Source: Octopus vulgaris (taxonomy: Eukaryota). From it: 64,000 bases of DNA. Within the stretch, counting starts at the first letter, position 1. Each line of letters opens with the position of its first letter. A program made the position numbers and the translations under genes. The stretch is taken from positions 146,630,001 to 146,694,000 of the forward strand of contig OX597815.1 of the NCBI GenBank assembly GCA_951406725.2. The letters are read 5' to 3'. The notes beneath the pieces are model-generated. The model saw only the letters and a list, made by a program, of their open reading frames with translations, searched no databases and had not been told where the DNA came from. Positions 8,602-58,976 of the stretch are shown here, piece by piece.

Positions 8602-9464
8602 ACAACTTGAAATAATTCATATGGAAGATTTGTCTGTATAAACGTATTGGCAAATATCCATATACCCTTTAGGTTTTGGAGATAAGCCCTTAGACGTTGT
8701 CAAGGAAAGTTCACATGTTGATGTTTCCGCCGGTAAAATGAAAGCAACGTTATTACTAACACCGGAGATATTGGATCACTTGAGAAAGCGAATATTGTTT
8801 GATTTACACATCGTACAGAGTTGATAGGTTCAATGAAGTTTCACAGACCGTTATCAGTCAAAATCTCTCTCAGTACGTATTTCATTTCATCTTTCCCTTC
8901 CAGATTGTCCTCTATCACCTTTCCCCCAGATATCCGGTATAGCCTGACCACCAATAAAGCCTTCCATCTGTCCAATAAGATAAGTTATTGATTTTTCTGT
9001 CCTGTATCTTCAATTACTGGCTTCTTTCCGACTTTACGCCCAAACATAGGTTTCAGTTAAAAGTAAACTTCGACTAAACGTTTATTACATCGCAATAATT
9101 ACTTAGACCTCACAGGTCAAACTCGATGTATCTCTTCTTACATCCATGGACAGTATTGATTTCAAGTAATCAAAATATTAATAAGATTTCCCCCACCGTC
9201 ATTTTTGGCAAGGAACTAAAATATGTTAACCTTTGTAAGAATGCCCCCGGAAATTGACATTACGATATTTAAAACAAAAAATAAATAAATTAATAAATAA
9301 ATATATCTGTTCTTTTATTGCAATGATTTGCGTGAGAGTAAAATCTCAGGTATATCTTATATATTTAAATGTTCATGTAAAAAGTACATCGCAACATCAA
9401 TCGTTATATTTTTACTCCTAGAATTTTTTGCATTTCAATTGCTAACATTTTCTTTTAATTATAT

Positions 9465-10548
9465 CAAAAGAGGTTGTCACAGTTCTAGGACAGCACTCTT
9501 CGCCCTATGAGATGACATCTGGTGTGCCGCAGGGATCTGTTCTTGGCCCCCTTTTATTTGTTGCATATGTTAATGACATAGATGCCAACTTAAAGAATGC
9601 CACAGTGCTGAAATATGCAGATGACATCAAGCTGTACCTCGAAATAAAGAGGTCAAATCTTATACACTATGGATCTCTATTGCAAGCAGACCTGGACACA
9701 ATGCAGCAGTGGATCATGGACTGGCAACTCAAGCTGGCTGTGGACAAATGTACCACCATGCATTTTGGGAGGAGAAACCCAGCGTCCACCTACTCCCTCC
9801 ACAACACTAGTCTCAAAAAGTCTTCAAGTGAACGTGACCTGGGTGTTATTGTCGACAGCGATTTGCGTTGGACAAAACACATCGCTAAAATTGTCAAGAA
9901 GGCTGAGGGTGTCTTGGCATCACTCACCAAATCCTTTGTGAGCCGCTCTCCGGCTATCTATCTGCGGCTGTATATAGCTATGGTAAGACCTCACCTGGAG
10001 TTTGCATCGCCGGTCTGGAGCCCCTATATTGCCCAGGACATCAATCGTCTGGAAGCTGTTCAGCGACGTGCAACCAAAAGAATACCCTCCATCAGGCATT
10101 TGCCATATCCTGAACGCCTTACCTCTCTGGGCATGGACACATTGAAACTCCGACGTCTGGCAGCTGACTTGGCAGACACCCATAAAATTATCAACTATCG
10201 CACAAACAATAACTCTGAGCACCTCTTCAAACTCCACCCATCTAACACCCGTGGACATATTTACAAAGTAAGAAAACAGCACAGCTCCCATGACTTCAGG
10301 AAACATTTTTTCACGCTGAGAGTTGCTGAAGCGTGGAACAAACTGCCGACATCGGTTGTTAGTTGTCGGAGCACTGCTTCCTTCAAGACTTCCATGCTTC
10401 CTGAGATTCGCCAACACTACACTTGATTTTCTCCCCTCCATACACCCAGACATTTCTACACTACTGCATGTACTTTATATGCACTTTCTGACAAGTTGTG
10501 GTGCACCTGAGCACTGTATACAATAATTTCATTATTATTATTATTATT
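9465..10548 (+). mobile_element. 5'-truncated CR1/L2-group LINE (RT C-terminal part, ORF 9512-10426) with (ATT)n tail
   Basis: SGVPQGSVLGPLLF, YADD, ERDLGV, VRPHLEFASPVWSP, LEAVQRRATK, TRGH, FFTLRV..WN.LP; frame open back to ~9465; short 3' UTR then (att)n. Confidence 0.93.
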
Positions 10549-30877: not shown

Positions 30878-30952
<75 letters not shown>

Positions 30953-31355
30953 TCAATTGAAATCCTGAAGAAAAGTTGTTTTTTACACGATGTAATTGTT
31001 TCGCTTATCAACAAAGAACACATCTGAAACAGCTGTTATGAACATCAGGCCATCAGTGTTATTGTTTATGCTTCACCACACTCGGAACCTTTCATGCGAT
31101 GGAGCTTGTGCCTATTGTGGATCGGGAAATACATGCCGGTATATACTCCTGTATGACTTCACATGCACACTTTGTATTTGGTCAATACTTGTGAATCTGT
31201 GCGTAACTAGAAAGACAATCTCCATATTCAATTTAGGAAGTGCGTGAGTGTCTGTACACATTGTTAGTGCACTGGTGCGCTGTCGCTGACTTTACCTTGG
31301 CACCTTTGTTATTTAAAACGCTGATTCCATCGAATCCTGGAAATTATATATATAT

Positions 31356-31592
31356 GGAAAAATGTCAAGGTAGAAAATGCTTAAATAATTTTATAGAAAA
31401 CGTTTCAGTACCGGTTTTAGTGATTAAGACTTTTTCAACTGTAAGTATGTAAAACAATGAAATTTTGGAAAAATTAAATGAAAATTTATTTTAAAAGAAT
31501 ATTTGCATATAGTGTTCAAATTCAAGTAACATTTCCTTGTTTCTGCCTGTTTCTGTCTCTCTTGTTTACCCCTGTGGGTTCGAGGTCGTTGT
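31356..31592 (-). mobile_element. Solo diverged 3'-terminal fragment of the Neptune-type PLE family, with decayed HHR at 31406-31441
   Basis: Colinear similarity to 45461-45690 (tttcagtaccggttt...ttttcaactgtaa...ttaaaagaatattt...gttcgagg); between TA tracts. Confidence 0.8.
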
Positions 31593-39545: not shown

Positions 39546-40992
39546 TCTATTTCATATAGGAATTTTGTTGTACGATGTATTATAAATAAATGTTCGAATT
39601 TTACTTCATTCGTATCTGTTTTCTCATACCCGTTGTTATTCACGTAGATGTATGAAACTTTACCAACCGTGAATGAAAATGTCTTTGAGGGCTAAATTTT
39701 TCATAGAGAGTAGATACGTAAAAGCGTGTCCCATATATTTGATTATAACGCGAATATTGTCTAACTATGACGTCTAATAGAGCTCTGGATAGTGTGGTAG
39801 CTCGTACTTGAATACATGACCTGAGAAAACCGCATTAAAGAATTATCATGGAGTAGCTTAATCCAAGAAAATATCCTTTTGATCGTGACTGGAGTGTCCT
39901 TGATCCAAGGAATTTGTTATTGGAAATAGCATGGAATTTAACAAAGACAACAGTAGAATTCCATATAGGCTGGATAGAACGGTGCAATTACAATGTGATA
40001 GTCACAGAACAGCGCACTTTATGATTATCAGCAATCAGAAACTGAGAACAATTAGATTACAGTGAGAAGGCCGAAACATCTAACGGTTCGCACGGTACAT
40101 TTCATAACAGCTTGGTTTTCCAGATCAGTGATGATATCGAACATGGAGATAGATAATCGAGAGACAGAGAACAGAAAGAAAACGAACAAATTTCGTTCTT
40201 CTAATTTTCCCAACCGATCTATTCAGAGGCATTAGAAGACAATCTGACGAACGCTTCAGTTTGAAACAACTGTACCTCATACCAAATTGTTCTCGCGTGA
40301 AGAATGGAAAACGACTAATGTTTGTACTGTTTTGACATTATTCTTGAATTCTCGACTTATACCATCCCTAATTTTGTTGGAATGGTACTGTCATTCTCCA
40401 TGATCGCTTGACATCTTGTTTCTGCTTCACTGATTGACGTATACTGCTGCGCCAGTGAAATTTTAAGTAAAATGTAATGGACTTTCGCAGTTGGATATAT
40501 TTGGAAACGTTACAAGACATCACATTCTGACAAACATCAGCGGTCGAAATATTGTTACCCGACTGAAATCAACGAAATTGCTACGTTTTTGTCTCAAAGC
40601 AATCCTCGTTACCAATCAGCTACGCTGCATTAAATTCTTTTTCTGTCTCTCATCTTTTTATTTGTTTCATTCATTCGAATACGGTCATACTGGATCACTA
40701 TCTTTAAAGGACTATTAAAATACAACGAATCTGGTATATATTTCTAAGTCAGCTGTTTATTCTGTTACATTTTTTTGACGAGCCAGTAAGTTATGGTGAC
40801 ATAAACAAAGGAAAAGTGGCATAACACACTTAGTCACGTTTACAAAGGGATTGTATGCCCCTTTATTAGACTAATGTCTTTAGTCATTGCATGGTGATCG
40901 CCATAAGTTTTAAGATTATATAGAAATATCATTATTATCATATACAGGATTGTAAAACACGGGACCGTATAAAAGAACCATTTCGCACCGAA

Positions 40993-43891: not shown

Positions 43892-43928
<37 letters not shown>

Positions 43929-43976
43929 TATTTATGCACATTAGACATATACATAGATACATACATGCATATACAT

Positions 43977-44051
<75 letters not shown>

Positions 44052-44230
44052 TAGTTGAATGAATTATCTTGTTTTGGATAATTCGGTTAACCGATACCTG
44101 GGTAGCAAATTCACATCAGAGAAGACACGGTTGAAGTTACGTGCTTTCGTGTGGAAATTTTTATGTTTTTTTTTTAAATATAAATATATGAGAGAATGGA
44201 GTTGAACGAGGAATTAACAAAATTCCTTTA

Positions 44231-44313
44231 TTTTCTACATATGTTTCGAAGGCTGCATATACCTAATTGCGAAGGAGTAAGGAGTATATTATGCCGCTTT
44301 CTCATCAGGAAAA
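44231..44313 (-). ncRNA. Type I hammerhead ribozyme, canonical core, extended stem II (opposite strand)
   Basis: Reverse complement reads ttttc-CTGATGA-...-GAAA-catatg-TA-gaaaa (GUA site). Confidence 0.85.
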
Positions 44314-44427
44314 GCAAGGAACTTATGTCCACATCAAGATGCACAAAAAATAATTATCGCTATGGGCTCCGTGTGAGCAGTCATCTAAAAGTTTTTGTGC
44401 ATCTCGATGTTGACATAAGTTCCTTGC

Positions 44428-44510
44428 TTTTCCTGATGAGAAAGCGGCATAATATACTCCTTATTCCTTCGCAATTAGGAATATGCAGCCTTCGAAACAT
44501 ATGTCGAAAA
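44428..44510 (+). ncRNA. Type I hammerhead ribozyme, canonical core, extended stem II
   Basis: ttttc-CTGATGA-gaaagcggcata...tatgcagccttc-GAAA-catatg-TC-gaaaa; 5 bp stem I, palindromic stem III ACATATGT, GUC site (predicted cut after 44505). Confidence 0.85.
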
Positions 44511-44547
44511 TAAAGGAATTTTGTTAATTCATCGTTCAACTCCATTC

Positions 44548-44584
<37 letters not shown>

Positions 44585-45464: not shown

Positions 45465-46818
45465 AAACAAGTAAAAAATAGAAAATGCTAAAATAATTTA
45501 ATAGTGAACATTTCAGTACCGGTTTCGGTCATTTTGAGACCTTTTCAACTGTAACGATTAAATAATTAAATTTAGAAAAATTAGAAGAAAAGTTTTTTTA
45601 AAAGAATATTTCTATAGTAGTGTTCAGATTTAAGTGGCATTCTGCCTTTCTCTGACTCCCTTGTTTGCACTTGTGTGTTCGAGGTAGTTGTGAGTTCTTG
45701 GTAGGGTAGTAGAGGGAAGGCTGGTGAGGAAAGGGGGTGGGAGAATCTGGGAGTGCCCTGATGGTCGTATTTTGAATGGTCAGTGGCGGCTGGCAGTCTC
45801 AGTTCAATTCAGGATTGTTTATAGAATTAGCGTAGGTGTTATACTAAAAAACATTAGTGACAAACTTAAGGGGTAGGGGGTGGAGAAGAAGAAGAAGAAG
45901 AAGAAGAAGAAGAAGAAGAAGAAGGAGAAGGAGAAGATGATGGTGATGGTGGTGATGATTATGACGACGATGATGATGATAACGATGATGAAGAAGAAGA
46001 AGAAGAAGAAGAAGAAGAAGAAGAAGAAGAAGAAGAAGAAGGAGAAGGAGAAGATGGTGGTGATGATGATGACGCCGATGATGATGATAACGATGATGAT
46101 GAAGAAGAAGAAGAAGAAAAAAACAGAGAAGGGAGAATATGAATGGGTGTAAATATAGCTATGAAGGGGCTGATTAGTAATGGATTCTATGGAGTGTAGT
46201 ATTTGTGTGTGTATATATATTTTTTTTTTTATTCTAAAGTTGAGGTATATTAATTGTTTGTCGTAGACCCGTTAAGAAGTGGCTTGTATTTTGTAATAAA
46301 GAGATTTTCTTTACTTATTCTTTGTCTCGAGGTTGTATCGTCCCTAAATTGGTAGAGGGGGAAAATTCTGAAGTTTGGTGTTTTTTTGTTGGCGCAAGTA
46401 TCTATGTGTTGGCTAAAAGCTATTTTTCTGTTTTGGGGAATTTTTATCTGGGATCTGTGCAGGGCCATTCGTTTACGCAAACCATTTTTTGTTTGGCCTA
46501 TGTACTGCTCTTGACACCCGGAGCAGGTTAGTGAGTATATTAGGTTCTCCGAAGCACATGTGAAGTTGCTTTTCACTGTAAACCGTTGTCCCTGTTTGAA
46601 GGAGAACTCCGAACCCTCGATTAGATAGTCGCATATCCCGCAATTGGGTCTTCCACATTTTTTTACTGTCGGCTTCTGTGTTGAAGAGTGAATTCGGGCT
46701 TGTGTAAGGAGACTTTTCATGGATCTAGGCTGTCTTTTGCTTTTTATGATCGTGTGTGTTTGGAGGATTGTGTTCATTCTGTGGTCTTTTTTTATGAGGG
46801 GTATGTTGTGGAGGATGG
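45461..46818 (-). repeat. Inverted pseudo-LTR arm (3' part of ORF incl. GIY-YIG + 3' UTR) of the PLE
   Basis: ORF 46250-46777(-) is identical to the last 175 aa of the + ORF. Only a few differences seen versus 48523-49878. Confidence 0.95.
45514..45551 (-). ncRNA. Minimal type I hammerhead ribozyme, U3-A8 core variant (inverted copy)
   Basis: Exact reverse complement of 49788-49825. Confidence 0.8.
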
Positions 46819-49091
46819 AACCAAAAGTAATAAAAATTATTAATCTAACTCACAAGGAACTAACAGCAAACCAAATAAACATACTTTCCAAAGGACTCAA
46901 GTTTACACCCACCCCACAACACCCCAACTACAATGAAATGAAAGAAGACATCGCAGAATTCTGCAGAAAATTAAGACTTACTGAGGAGCTATACGATAAA
47001 TACAACGAGGACGAATCGTTAGCCAGAAATAGGAGTAACTACACCCCCTCGAAAGGTAAGAATAAAACACTTGATGATTTCTGTGACCACATATCAAATT
47101 ACCCATATCAACATATGCACAAACAAAAACACAAACCAAACTTCAGCAAAAAAGAATGGGCTGAGTTGAACAAATTAAAACTAGATAAAACAATAACAAT
47201 CAAAGAGGCCGATAAAGGGAGTGCTGTTGTCTTAATGGATACGACATTTTACATAACTTTGGTACTTTCTATGCTGGAAGACACAAGATACTATGAAAAG
47301 GCACAAAACTACAGTCAACAAAAAATAATGAGGGAACTAAAATCCATATTAAACCCATACAAAGCAGGGCTCACCGACAAAGAATATGATTATATGACCA
47401 ATTTCACAAGTAAAACTAGCCAATTCTACGGTATACCTAAGATCCACAAAAGTGAAAAAATAAGCAACGCATGCAAGATAGCTACAGACAAAATAATTAA
47501 AGTCCCTAATCCTAATGACCTCAAATTGAGACCCATAATAGCAGGTCCCGCATGCGAAACCCACCGCCTCAGTAACTTTTTAGACACCCTGTTAAAACCA
47601 CTCCTCAAACATGTCAAAAGCTATATAAGGGACGACTTAGATATGCTCAATCACCTACCGAATACTATAAACAAAAACACCATACTGGTATCCTTCGATG
47701 TAGTCAACCTCTACTCCAATATCCCCCACAACCTAGGACTAGAAGCAATCCAATTCTGGCTAGAGAATCACGCCAACGAACTACCACACCGCATCAAAAA
47801 AGAATTTGTGATAGAAGGGGTTAAATTCATCCTGGAAAATAACTTCTTCGCCTTCAATGACAACTTCTACCGACAAAAATCGGGGACTGCGATGGGTACA
47901 CGAATGGCCCCCTCCTTTGCCAACCTAGTCATAGGATACCTAGAGATCAGTCTGTATCGTAAGGTTCTAGAAAGATATGGCAGCCCTTTCTCCATCTACA
48001 TAGAAAACAACTGGAAGAGATATCTAGATGACTGTTTCATCCTTTGGCATAAAAATATAGAAAAACTCATAGAATTCCAGAAAATTTTAAACGGACTGGA
48101 CGTAAACATCCAATTCACGATGGAATATAGCCAACAACAACTCCCCTTCCTCGATATCCTCATTAAGAAAGCTAATAATATAATAGAAACAGACATATAC
48201 TATAAGCCTACAGACTCTAAGCAATATCTTCCATTCAATTCATGCCACCCCAGACACACCAGGATGAATATCCCCTTCAATCTAGCAAAAAGGATATGCA
48301 CTATAGTCTCTAACGCAAACACCAGAGACACACGACTACAAGAACTAAAAGATACCCTAATCACCAGGAACTATCCACCTTCACTTATTGACAAGTGCAT
48401 TCAACGTGCCCTTCAACTTAACATCAAGGAACTGAGACATCCCAAATCAAAGAAAAACTTACAACCAAAAGCCTTACCATACATCTCCACACACAACCCT
48501 CTCAATAACGAAGCCTTCGACACCATCCTCCACAACATACCCCTCCTAAAAAAAGACCACAGAATGAACACAATCCTCCAAACACACACGATCATAAAAA
48601 GCAAAAGACAGCCTAGATCCATGAAAAGTCTCCTTACACAAGCCCGAATTCACTCTTCAACACAGAAGCCGACAGTAAAAAAATGTGGAAGACCCAATTG
48701 CGGGATATGCGACTATCTAATCGAGGGTTCGGAGTTCTCCTTCAAACAGGGACAACGGTTTACAGTGAAAAGCAACTTCACATGTGCTTCGGAGAACCTA
48801 ATATACTCACTAACCTGCTCCGGGTGTCAAGAGCAGTACATAGGCCAAACAAAAAATGGTTTGCGTAAACGAATGGCCCTGCACAGATCCCAGATAAAAA
48901 TTCCCCAAAACAGAAAAATAGCTTTTAGCCAACACATAGATACTTGCGCCAACAAAAAAACACCAAACTTCAGAATTTTCCCCCTCTACCAATTTAGGGA
49001 CGATACAACCTCGAGACAAAGAATAAGTAAAGAAAATCTCTTTATTACAAAATACAAGCCACTTCTTAACGGGTCTACGACAAACAATTAA
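46815..49091 (+). CDS. PLE reverse transcriptase + C-terminal GIY-YIG endonuclease (ORF track start 46719; residues up to the Met at 46815 are antisense sequence from the inverted arm)
   Basis: PLE motifs: INLT..LSKGLKFTP, ADKG, LRPII, FDVVNLYSNIP, GTAMGTRMAPSFANL, RYLDD, LPFLD, YYKPT, FNSCHP. Cys-rich linker CGRPNCGIC..C, then LIYSLTCSGCQEQYIG...H...H...E...LN. No stops or frameshifts. Confidence 0.95.
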   Translation: MEPKVIKIINLTHKELTANQINILSKGLKFTPTPQHPNYNEMKEDIAEFCRKLRLTEELYDKYNEDESLARNRSNYTPSKGKNKTLDDFCDHISNYPYQHMHKQKHKPNFSKKEWAELNKLKLDKTITIKEADKGSAVVLMDTTFYITLVLSMLEDTRYYEKAQNYSQQKIMRELKSILNPYKAGLTDKEYDYMTNFTSKTSQFYGIPKIHKSEKISNACKIATDKIIKVPNPNDLKLRPIIAGPACETHRLSNFLDTLLKPLLKHVKSYIRDDLDMLNHLPNTINKNTILVSFDVVNLYSNIPHNLGLEAIQFWLENHANELPHRIKKEFVIEGVKFILENNFFAFNDNFYRQKSGTAMGTRMAPSFANLVIGYLEISLYRKVLERYGSPFSIYIENNWKRYLDDCFILWHKNIEKLIEFQKILNGLDVNIQFTMEYSQQQLPFLDILIKKANNIIETDIYYKPTDSKQYLPFNSCHPRHTRMNIPFNLAKRICTIVSNANTRDTRLQELKDTLITRNYPPSLIDKCIQRALQLNIKELRHPKSKKNLQPKALPYISTHNPLNNEAFDTILHNIPLLKKDHRMNTILQTHTIIKSKRQPRSMKSLLTQARIHSSTQKPTVKKCGRPNCGICDYLIEGSEFSFKQGQRFTVKSNFTCASENLIYSLTCSGCQEQYIGQTKNGLRKRMALHRSQIKIPQNRKIAFSQHIDTCANKKTPNFRIFPLYQFRDDTTSRQRISKENLFITKYKPLLNGSTTNN

Positions 49092-49787
49092 TATACCTCA
49101 ACTTTAGAATAAAAGAAAAAAATATATATACACACACAAATACTACACTCCATAGAATCCATTACTAATCAGCCCCTTCATAGCTATATTTACACCCATT
49201 CATATTCTCCCTTCTCTGTTTTTTTCTTCTTCTTCTTCATCATCATCGTTATCATCATCATCGGCGTCATCATCATCACCACCATCTTCTCCTTCTCCTT
49301 CTTCTTCTTCTTCTTCTTCTTCTTCTTCTTCTTCTTCTTCTTCTTCTTCATCATCGTTATCATCATCATCGTCGTCATAATCATCACCACCATCACCATC
49401 ATCTTCTCCTTCTCCTTCTTCTTCTTCTTCTTCTTCTTCTTCTTCTTCTTCTTCTCCACCCCCTACCCCTTAAGTTTGTCACTAATGTTTTTTAGTATAA
49501 CACCTACGCTAATTCTATAAACAATCCTGAATTGAACTGAGACTGCCAGCCGCCACTGACCATTCAAAATACGACCATCAGGGCACTCCCAGATTCTCCC
49601 ACCCCCTTTCCTCACCAGCCTTCCCTCTACTACCCTACCAAGAACTCACAACTACCTCGAACACACAAGTGCAAACAAGGGAGTCAGAGAAAGGCAGAAT
49701 GCCACTTAAATCTGAACACTACTATAGAAATATTCTTTTAAAAAAACTTTTCTTCTAATTTTTCTAAATTTAATTATTTAATCGTTA

Positions 49788-49825
49788 CAGTTGAAAAGGT
49801 CTCAAAATGACCGAAACCGGTACTG
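49788..49825 (+). ncRNA. Minimal type I hammerhead ribozyme, U3-A8 core variant
   Basis: cag-TTGAAAA-ggtc(tcaaaat)gacc-GAAA-ccgg-TA-ctg: stem I cag/ctg, stem II ggtc/gacc, palindromic stem III ACCGGT, GUA cleavage triplet; located in the PLE 3' UTR. Confidence 0.8.
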
Positions 49826-49911
49826 AAATGTTCACTATTAAATTATTTTAGCATTTTCTATTTTTTACTTGTTTTTTCATATATATCAACTCGTGTGTTC
49901 CTTTTCACCCT

Positions 49912-55299: not shown

Positions 55300-56290
55300 G
55301 GAGTTCATAGTTGTAAATGTTACAAAATCATAGTTTTGGTCTCTGAGGATAACCCCAAAAGAATTAAATGTATGTCTAATAATTCTATATACCAATTAAG
55401 AATTCTATATACCAATTAAAATTTCTTGCGGTACCGATGTCTTCTTATACATTGGCGCATCATCTTCCCAGTTATCTAAAAGAAATTTCCAATCATTATT
55501 CTTCATTTAGGGATAGCAGTAAACGTTATAGCACAGGACTAAGTAAATTGGTTTGGCATCTTAAAGACAAGAATAATGATTTTAAGTTAGATTGGTTCAT
55601 CCTGTCCATATCATTCCCATATGACAAGGGCAAAGGGTTTTGTAACATTTGCAACTCTGAACTCTTTCATATTCTCTTCTCTAAGAATCACCTTCTTAAC
55701 ACACTTATAGAGCGATCTTACAAATGTAAGCACTGGCAGAAATATACCTTTAGCTCATAAAAGTGATTTATAGCAGTCTTTTTAGTTTGAACATTTAGTT
55801 AAACTTGCACATTACTTCAATAGAGAAATCTACTTCCATATCTTCGAACATTTTTTCAACCAATATATCCCTATTTATTTGTACTTATTATTTCTTTACC
55901 CCTTCTCTTCCTGGGGTCTGCCTTTGACATCGGATCTACTAACGGTTTTTCAAATACTTAATAGCGTTTTGTTTATGCAGTCATCGAAATTATTATAACG
56001 TCCTGTTGTTAAGTTAGGTTCTCTTTCTTTCCTTTGAGAAGATTGCATTTTCCACCGTTTATTCCTTTGGAATAAACCCAATGTTGTCTTAGAAACATAT
56101 GTCGAAAGTAAAAGAATTTGAATAGCATCTGCGTTCAACTCCATTTATTTACTTATACTATACAAATTACTGCACATTAACCCGGAGTTTCTACCTTTGA
56201 ATAGGTCGCTATATCCTTGTTACTTGTGTGAATTTTGCTACTCTGGTAACTGTTTATTGAATTTTCCATGTTAACCGTAAACATAGGATA
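55300..56290 (+). mobile_element. Degenerate PLE 3' portion of a second clade (Naiad-like EN): GIY-YIG remnant + 3' UTR with decayed HHR (56028-56107)
   Basis: SIYQLKISCGTDVFLYIG, then (frameshift) NHYSSF...STGLSKLVWHLK...W.IL...PY...CNIC..E...LLN...KCKH; downstream GAAAcatatgTCgaaa. Confidence 0.8.
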
Positions 56291-56440
56291 ATTCATTCAT
56301 CCATTTACATATGTACATATATATATATATATATATATATTGGTAAAAACGGTAAGATAACAAATGAAAGAGACCTCAATATTATGTAAATAGAGGAAAT
56401 TTATCTGTAAAATAGTATGTGACAATTATTCAATAGCCAA

Positions 56441-57499: not shown

Positions 57500-58820
57500 A
57501 AAATTTTTTTTATTTATTTATCTAGTTTCGGCTCACAAGCTGTGGCCATGCTACACGATTTTACTTCACGAATGCTTTTTAGCAATTGCCATTTGGTGCA
57601 TGAGAGAGTTCGATGCAGCTGCCCTCATCTGCACCTCCTGCTGTGAAGTTGGTTCATCTGGGATACCTGACAAGAAGAGATCCAGTTTCATTTTAAAGAC
57701 ATCTGCATCCACCCCATGCAGGTCTCTTAGGTTCTTCGGGAGGATATTGAAGAGCTGTGCGCCTCGGAAGCCCAGGCTATCACAATATCTTGTCCTACAT
57801 CTTGATGGCAAATTTGGAGTCCTTGGCACTATGCGGTGGCGCCCAGTTCTGGCATTTGTGTAACTCTCGATGCCAAAGTTTGGGACAAGTCCTGCTGGGA
57901 TCTTCCAGATGTATATTATGGCATATATTTCTCGCCTACGCTCTAAGGAATAGAGTGTCAATCTCTTGAGTCTTTCTCAATAGCTTATATGCTGCACAGA
58001 GGCTATCTTCTTCGTGTAGCTTTGTTGGATCGCCTCAAGTTCTGTGATTAACTTGACACTGGATGGTGACCATAGCTGAGAGCAATAGTCAAATTGGCTT
58101 AGGACAAGTGTCCTCCAGAGGACCATCATGGTTTCCTGGTCTCTTGTTCTGAAGGTTCTAAGAATCCATCCGGTCAGCCGCCTACATTTCAGTACCAATT
58201 TAGCAACATGCACATGAAAGGTTGTATCATCACTCATGTAAATACCCAGGTCTCGCACTGATTGTGCCTCTGGGAATGCAGGCCCTCCAGGTCCAGTGTA
58301 TTTATTGGGTATTGCATTTAATTTTGCGTGCTGATTGCATAGAGCTTGAAACTTTTCAGCATTGAACTGCATGCTATTCTTTTCAGCCCACTTGTATATT
58401 TTGTCCAGCTCACATTGCAGGTGCTTAGTGTCTTCAGGGTTCTGTATTGCCTGTGAAACTTTTGTATCATCTCCATAACTTGTGATCGTGGTTCTCTGCG
58501 TGGCTGAGGGCATGTCTGAGAGGACCATTATGAACAGTAGTGGTCCCAAAACAGTGCCCTGCGGAACACCACTCACTATTTGCATGTTAGTGGAAGCTAC
58601 TACCACCTGACTTCTATCCTTCAGAAAGTCATGAAGCCATTCTCCCAATTTTCCTACTATGCCAAGATCACGCAGTTTATGACATAGCATTCCATGATCG
58701 ACTTTATCAAAGGCCTTTGCAAAGTCGAGATATATGACTTCCACATTTGAGTGGTTGAGTAGTCGTTTCAGCACCCAGTCATAGTGTTGTAGGAGCTGAG
58801 TTAAGCAGCTTCTTCCTGTG
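57500..58820 (-). mobile_element. 5'-truncated CR1/L2-group LINE RT, frameshifted near 57970
   Basis: GRSCLTQLL, YLDFAKAFDKVDH, SGVPQGTVLGPLLF, YGDD, VRDLGI, DYCSQLWSP, LYSLERRRE, LFNILP. Confidence 0.92.
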
Positions 58821-58834
58821 TATATATATATACA

Positions 58835-58884
58835 CAGTAGTTCCTCGGTTTTCGAACAAATCTGATCGCGAATAAATCGTGCTT

Positions 58885-58929
<45 letters not shown>

Positions 58930-58976
58930 CAGGATTTGTTCGTGATCAGAGTTGTTTGAAAACCGAGGTTCTACTT
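58835..58976. mobile_element. Tigger/pogo-like MITE remnant
   Basis: Imperfect ~25 bp TIRs cagtagttcctcggttttcgaacaa / ttgtttgaaaaccgaggttctactt; internal (TA)n. Confidence 0.65.

Follow-up and report, generated by a model that had tools for sequence, protein, structure and literature searches.

Two hammerhead ribozyme motifs, one on each strand of a short ORF-less inverted repeat, raise the question of what kind of genetic object the octopus genome carries at this locus. The repeat lies within a 64,000-nt stretch of Octopus vulgaris DNA (contig OX597815.1, positions 146,630,001 to 146,694,000), hereafter the window, and a sequence-only reading had left two answers, namely a one-off abortive insertion of a Penelope-like element (PLE) or a minimal non-autonomous ribozyme hairpin element. 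Our analysis identifies the unit as Penelope-like debris of a familiar type, real and explained, and no new self-replicating RNA. With good confidence, we interpret it as the terminal repeat of a Hydra-like PLE, inserted head-to-head and without an ORF into a (TA)n microsatellite. Its likely origin is reverse transcription of a single uncut element RNA, primed at two fixed internal sites by the two nicked strands of the target and copied back to the predicted start.

Structure of the unit

Inverted-repeat comparison within the window recovered arms of 175 nt (44175-44349 and 44392-44566) that are 95% complementary and separated by a 42-nt spacer, and RNA folding of the arm hairpin gave -272.6 kcal/mol (z = -35). 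Comparison and fold thus bore out the initial description of inverted arms with one outward-pointing hammerhead motif per strand. The symmetry of that description and its limits of 44186 to 44555 did not stand, as the whole unit (44049-44563) is lopsided, with a left, minus-strand arm that is longer by 126 nt and a tail on one side only (Table 1). In full-length copies, the region of this tail continues into the beginning of the ORF. The unit is adjoined by (TA)n at both ends, and its short arm is without the upstream TATA and CRE-like motifs that long copies have; the stub is probably a dead end.

Table 1. Coordinates of the unit and its flanks within the window
Feature	Position	Strand	Description
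Left target flank	43895..44048	.	(TA)n-rich
Long arm	44049..44350	-	Pseudo-LTR +40 to +360 (positions relative to the predicted start); ends at fixed site B
One-sided tail	44049..44174	-	126 nt, sites A to B; beyond the coordinates of the sequence-only reading
Long-arm hammerhead motif	44220..44324	-	Core 44308-44302, GUA, predicted cut after 44236
Head-to-head junction	44351..44352	.	Two extra bases; single occurrence genome-wide
Short arm	44353..44563	+	Pseudo-LTR +1 to about +212; ends at fixed site A
Predicted transcription start (Inr-like)	44353	+	First base of short arm
Short-arm hammerhead motif	44417..44521	+	Core 44433-44439, GAAA 44494-44497, palindromic stem III 44497-44504, GUC, predicted cut after 44505
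Right target flank	44552..44581	.	(TA)n; overlaps AT-rich site A

Hammerhead motifs

Both arms follow a type I hammerhead layout, in which stem I measures 5 bp + 9 bp, the long stem II carries an insert of 32 nt and stem III is formed by 2 bp around an 8-nt palindrome; the conserved core, three stems and NUH site are all present. The loose core motif matched four times in the window, compared to a mean of 0.25 (maximum 2) over 100 local shuffles. The earlier assignment of GUC to the plus and GUA to the minus strand was confirmed, GUA being a change private to the window copy (GUC in 159 of 165 arms, GUA in 1 of 165). A covariance-model search, which had been put forward as a check, did not recover the ribozyme: no Rfam hammerhead model was found among 141 matches at E <= 1, and matches at the locus were microRNA-type hairpin noise only. 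The motif probably went unscored because of the insert in stem II. Energies of the hammerhead fold and the MFE structure were -20.4 and -24.6 for the right arm and -16.1 and -20.7 for the left, with an approximate dimer energy close to that of two MFE monomers.

Relative to a sister family described below, core and palindrome are conserved while three pairs differ on both sides, and these compensatory changes support the fold. In this alignment, 95.2% of cells were paired, a level reached by 0 of 500 shuffles, while slid controls gave 39-50%. Drawn from two lineages only, the covariation is modest evidence that favours a functional ribozyme in the parent element. Two of the 11 subfamily-diagnostic sites disrupt or occupy paired or core positions. 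Lower core mutation among copies was discarded as evidence, being confounded by the search pattern.

In read-through of either strand the antisense arm is made first, and in folding the core was fully paired in every prefix tested. Since the antisense arm is always transcribed first, the ribozymes in the stub are predicted to be masked by their own antisense in read-through RNA and would be passengers. The antisense off-switch suggested previously is therefore supported as to masking, which follows from the geometry of the insertion and shows no sign of a selected switch, and nothing points to a viroid-like life cycle.

A recurrent class of stubs with individual junctions

A search of the 2.8-Gb, microsatellite-rich genome with the unit yielded 1996 candidates, and all 40 of those scored match nearly the full unit, whilst an exact ribozyme-core pattern gave 471 genome matches against 0 for the control. 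The first 100 of these 471 matches in genome order provided a position-ordered sample of 81 loci, each with the exact core in at least one arm, such that loci without an exact core fall outside it. A head-to-head junction was detected in 58 of the 81 loci and none in the other 23. ORF-less fold-backs with two whole ribozymes made up 15 of the 81 (14 once a segmental duplicate is merged), which extrapolates to roughly 70 such stubs among core-intact loci as a lower bound. With near-whole matches in every scored candidate and similar structures at 15 of 81 loci, a one-off abortive insertion is rejected.

Junction positions were taken from BLAST ends, with an accuracy of a few bases. At up to two mismatches the window junction has its one genome occurrence, and none of 13 looser matches has its sequence; three of the 13 belong to an unrelated 161-bp (2 x 81) tandem array (L162:1069-1648), a chance match to the loose junction pattern. 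Over all examined loci, 80 of the 82 position pairs at junctions are distinct; the repeats involve L061 and L062, which share flanks as a segmental duplicate, and L009 and L011, which differ by a 9-nt insert. A 770-bp palindrome in L055 was likewise rejected as a family feature, being that locus's own junction. A junction found in no other copy had been named as the mark of a one-off insertion; no other copy does share the window junction, yet the stub type itself is recurrent.

Four subfamilies were distinguished, each with stubs. Both arms of a locus follow one subfamily pattern, L053 being mixed at three sites; same-subfamily arms could also mean different activity periods or gene conversion. 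Taken together, the individual junctions, the shared subfamily within each locus and the four stub-making subfamilies indicate neither a one-off event nor a self-propagating hairpin, and we conclude that the stubs are recurrent by-products of an autonomous element. The many similar units, along with the predicted rod-like fold and core masking, are what might be expected of a minimal hairpin that is transcribed and re-inserted whole in retrozyme- or viroid-like fashion under an antisense off-switch. This second answer of the sequence-only reading is nonetheless largely refuted, and we consider it very improbable: the window junction is unique with all 13 looser matches different, nearly all junction position pairs differ, stubs arose in each of four subfamilies, arm lengths vary continuously up to full length, same-strand core pairs closer than 2.7 kb were absent among the first 100 of the 471 matches, and the stub is without upstream promoter motifs.

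Parent element and classification

Longer copies run upstream through the 3' UTR into a GIY-YIG end and a reverse transcriptase (RT) with DKT and YRDD, so that the suggested link to PLEs held, the unit belonging to an RT/GIY-YIG family by way of its long copies. A chance hammerhead motif in a MITE or fold-back DNA transposon that duplicates its TA target, for which the long inverted arms and TA flanks could be cited, is refuted by this continuity with the RT ORF and is given next to no weight; the arms are unequal, the centre is variable, and the sequence corresponds to the 3' repeat of an element that encodes an RT. The parent is about 3.55 kb in length, with a single ORF for a PLE-type RT and GIY-YIG endonuclease (EN), and its long copies are 2-9% off the family majority. 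L080 is laid out as inverted pseudo-LTR (pLTR), partial pLTR, ORF, pLTR and tail, and pLTRs, a partial tandem plus inverted 5' copy and a one-sided tail were seen in L080, L079 and L090. The sense hammerhead sits in the pLTR.

A Pfam search of the parent protein returned no RT or EN match, whilst HTH_animal, RVT_1 and GIY-YIG are found in some of the members of its Atlas neighbours. In the parent RT, DKT replaces DKG and RWL stands at the aligned place of the RWK motif; CCHH is absent, and the endonuclease has CxxC and CxH. The CxCX5C linker was absent from all 27 translated segments, which count some loci twice, but present in 105 of 120 homologues, where the remaining 15 are short or partial sequences. 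A quick tree built from 45 of 122 proteins, to which named Hydra proteins did not belong, placed the RT among linker-bearing homologues (SH-aLRT 97-99). Judged on these sequence features, the parent is filed as an EN+ PLE, Hydra-like.

Two Asn-rich inserts were observed in the ORF (L092:4251-6437, L081:5034-6434), one in place of the CxCX5C linker, and are reminiscent of inserts rich in N that Adineta Penelopes carry (Arkhipova et al. 2013, PMC3846280). A possible 66-nt GT-AG intron (L080:3739-3804), positioned a short way upstream of the ORF start, spans the end of the tail, and no matching joint was present among those seen in assembled contigs. Across the assembled contigs of four runs, three of them guessed to be RNA, the DNA-like run showed A>G and T>C counts comparable to the rest, so that the counts carry no indication of editing. 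An intact PLE located 2 kb from the unit was ruled out as its parent (23% over 105 aa).

Two fixed ends and a predicted start

Of the 81 loci, 52 are A+B pairs, in which an arm ending at site A stands head-to-head with an arm ending at site B; the other six head-to-head loci comprise one B+B pair and a remainder that includes broken copies, with no A+A pair. Site A falls at +199 to +230, mostly +212, and site B at +350 to +360, about 150 nt away. A TA run follows 52 of 57 B ends, and the element sequence beyond both sites is AT-rich and resembles the target, a similarity suggesting that priming occurs by pairing.

At their 5' ends, 36 of the 104 arms start at a TATA/Inr-like site. Among the 63 starts between -100 and +62, these 36 lie within -5 to +15 (binomial p 1e-16), and in 29 of the 52 pairs at least one arm begins at the predicted start. 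TATAAA at -28 and a CRE-like motif are positioned upstream of the Inr-like pile-up site. From motif and pile-up together we infer that +1 is the putative transcription start, where copying would run off the 5' end of the transcript. None of the 104 5' ends and none of the 180 outer ends coincides with the ribozyme cut site, which both arms of the window unit span; a single one of the 104 starts lies at +62 to +81. Because starts pile up at the TATA/Inr-like site and none at the ribozyme cut, we conclude that the copied RNA was uncut.

The A arm has the further 5' reach in 31 pairs and the B arm in 17, with four ties, whilst the tail occurs in the B arm only. Arms overlap in 41 of the 52 pairs, and neither contains the other in 31. 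Junctions comprised 29 with microhomology, four blunt and 19 with inserts. In LINE-1 twin priming, a 5' inversion results from two primers on one RNA. The classic, non-overlapping shape of that process is seen in 11 of the 52 pairs, whereas the other 41 duplicate the overlap, and here the internal priming site is fixed. A simple fold-back, in which one cDNA or antisense RNA primes itself at its end and the hairpin is later trimmed by the endonuclease at A on one arm and at B on the other, would also suit the microhomology at 29 junctions, and self-priming from palindromes at inverted junctions has been proposed (PMC3846280). When primed at B, however, it requires an A arm that lies wholly within the B arm, contrary to the 31 non-nested pairs, and the 11 have no overlap at all; only an extra trimming step rescues it, and strict A+B pairing stays unexplained. 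Given the non-nested pairs, we favour twin priming on one RNA and consider simple fold-back unlikely.

Proposed mechanism

Under twin priming, both target strands would be nicked and both (TA)n ends would prime reverse transcription on one uncut element RNA, with pairing between the AT-rich sequence at A and B and the (TA)n ends presumably aiding the priming. The cDNAs would be copied back to the predicted transcription start. Where arms overlap, the second cDNA would displace the first, or else a second RNA would be needed, and the two cDNA 3' ends may then be joined via short microhomology or a few added bases. To our knowledge, the RT of PLEs has no RNase H.

As a tentative extension in which our confidence is limited, the stub family might be a genomic record of unresolved PLE integration, where one uncut RNA is primed by both (TA)n ends at two fixed AT-rich sites 150 nt apart, followed by displacement and run-off at the start. 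On this proposal, (TA)n targeting might proceed by RNA-DNA pairing rather than through the Zn-finger linker, lost in this lineage, and the hammerhead, instead of serving maturation, might be a brake by which templates are removed.

Comparison with known systems

Inverted 5' copies, tails and the Hydra clade are described in Craig et al. (2021, PMC8557442). EN+ PLEs (PMC8557442, PMC3846280) share with the octopus element a pLTR hammerhead, a head-to-head inverted copy, a one-sided tail, TATA/Inr-like motifs within the pLTR and N-rich ORF inserts; their tail is 30-40 nt, compared to about 126-150 nt here, and start-bounded ORF-less stubs are a large class here (29 of 52 pairs). Hydra-clade PLEs such as Hydra-1_Obim, itself a different family from the octopus element, share DKT, YRDD, the absence of CCHH, a CxxC + CxH endonuclease, a sense hammerhead with palindromic stem III and (TA)n targets (PMC8557442), whereas the octopus element has no CxCX5C, RWL for RWK, a length of ~3.55 kb versus <3 kb and a stem II that is far longer.

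Pairs of hammerheads on opposite strands, derived from truncated PLEs, have been published before: in Schistosoma mansoni, minimal hammerheads 100-700 bp apart on opposite strands were ascribed to such copies, with weak, dimer-dependent cleavage (Cervera and De la Pena 2014, PMC4209133). The octopus pairs share the opposite strands, the truncated-PLE origin and a palindromic helix III suited to dimers, and differ in that parent, fixed ends and junction statistics are mapped and stems I and II are long. In vitro, the Poseidon PAc system cuts and extends both strands, uses two internal RNA start sites that set the tail and copies an uncut RNA template (Frangieh et al. 2024, PMC11167929). The AT-rich target is shared by the octopus element, for which we also propose two internal start sites, extension of both strands and an uncut template, although here the sites are 150 nt apart, AT-rich, target-like and used as a strict A+B pair. 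For PAc, no start-site difference between strands and priming at non-homologous sites were reported (PMC11167929), so that neither strict A+B pairing nor AT pairing follows from those results by themselves.

Animal non-LTR retrozymes (PMC7229834; bioRxiv 10.64898/2026.07.22.740005) are likewise ORF-less, PLE-related and equipped with a type I hammerhead. Their tandem units of 150-450 bp are arranged head-to-tail with ribozyme-cut bounds, whereas the stubs are head-to-head and ignore the cut site. A literature search, mostly of papers outside subscription, found nothing on start-bounded double-ribozyme stubs or PLE twin priming.

Sister family and other window features

A 5'-truncated copy of a sister Hydra-like family was observed at 55333-56304 (+), with a GIY-YIG end and a pLTR with damaged hammerhead core, terminating in (TA)n. 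This family, at about 69-70% identity, has 2828 candidates and 920 exact core matches genome-wide, and keeps the Inr-like and CRE-like motifs without a clean TATAAA; by eye, 6 of 27 of its loci start at the Inr-like motif. A different PLE, which we take to be Neptune-like and which is possibly young, occupies about 45840-49900 with an uninterrupted ORF of 761 aa (46806-49091, +; RVT_1 E 3.3e-8, GIY-YIG E 3.7e-4), DKG and CxxxxCxxC motifs and an inverted copy of its own 3' end upstream. Hammerhead-like core motifs also occur at 30965-31037 and 40244-40274 (+), the former having a palindromic stem III and weak stems just past a (TA)n run; a genome search with 30950-31590 drew its matches mostly from an adjacent 240-bp repeat. 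The window further contains a short inverted repeat with a (TA)n run at its centre (58846-58965) and LINE-type RT fragments, on translations judged by eye, at 9446-10426 and 57977-58945.

Implications

If read through, the stubs would be a source of long double-stranded RNA. Their statistics bear on questions raised by Craig et al. (PMC8557442), namely the origin of the inverted structure and tail, the drive behind microsatellite targeting and the role of the hammerhead. Ultimately, A+B pairing, non-nested arms, cut-free ends and linker-less (TA)n targeting make both twin priming and linker-independent targeting directly testable.
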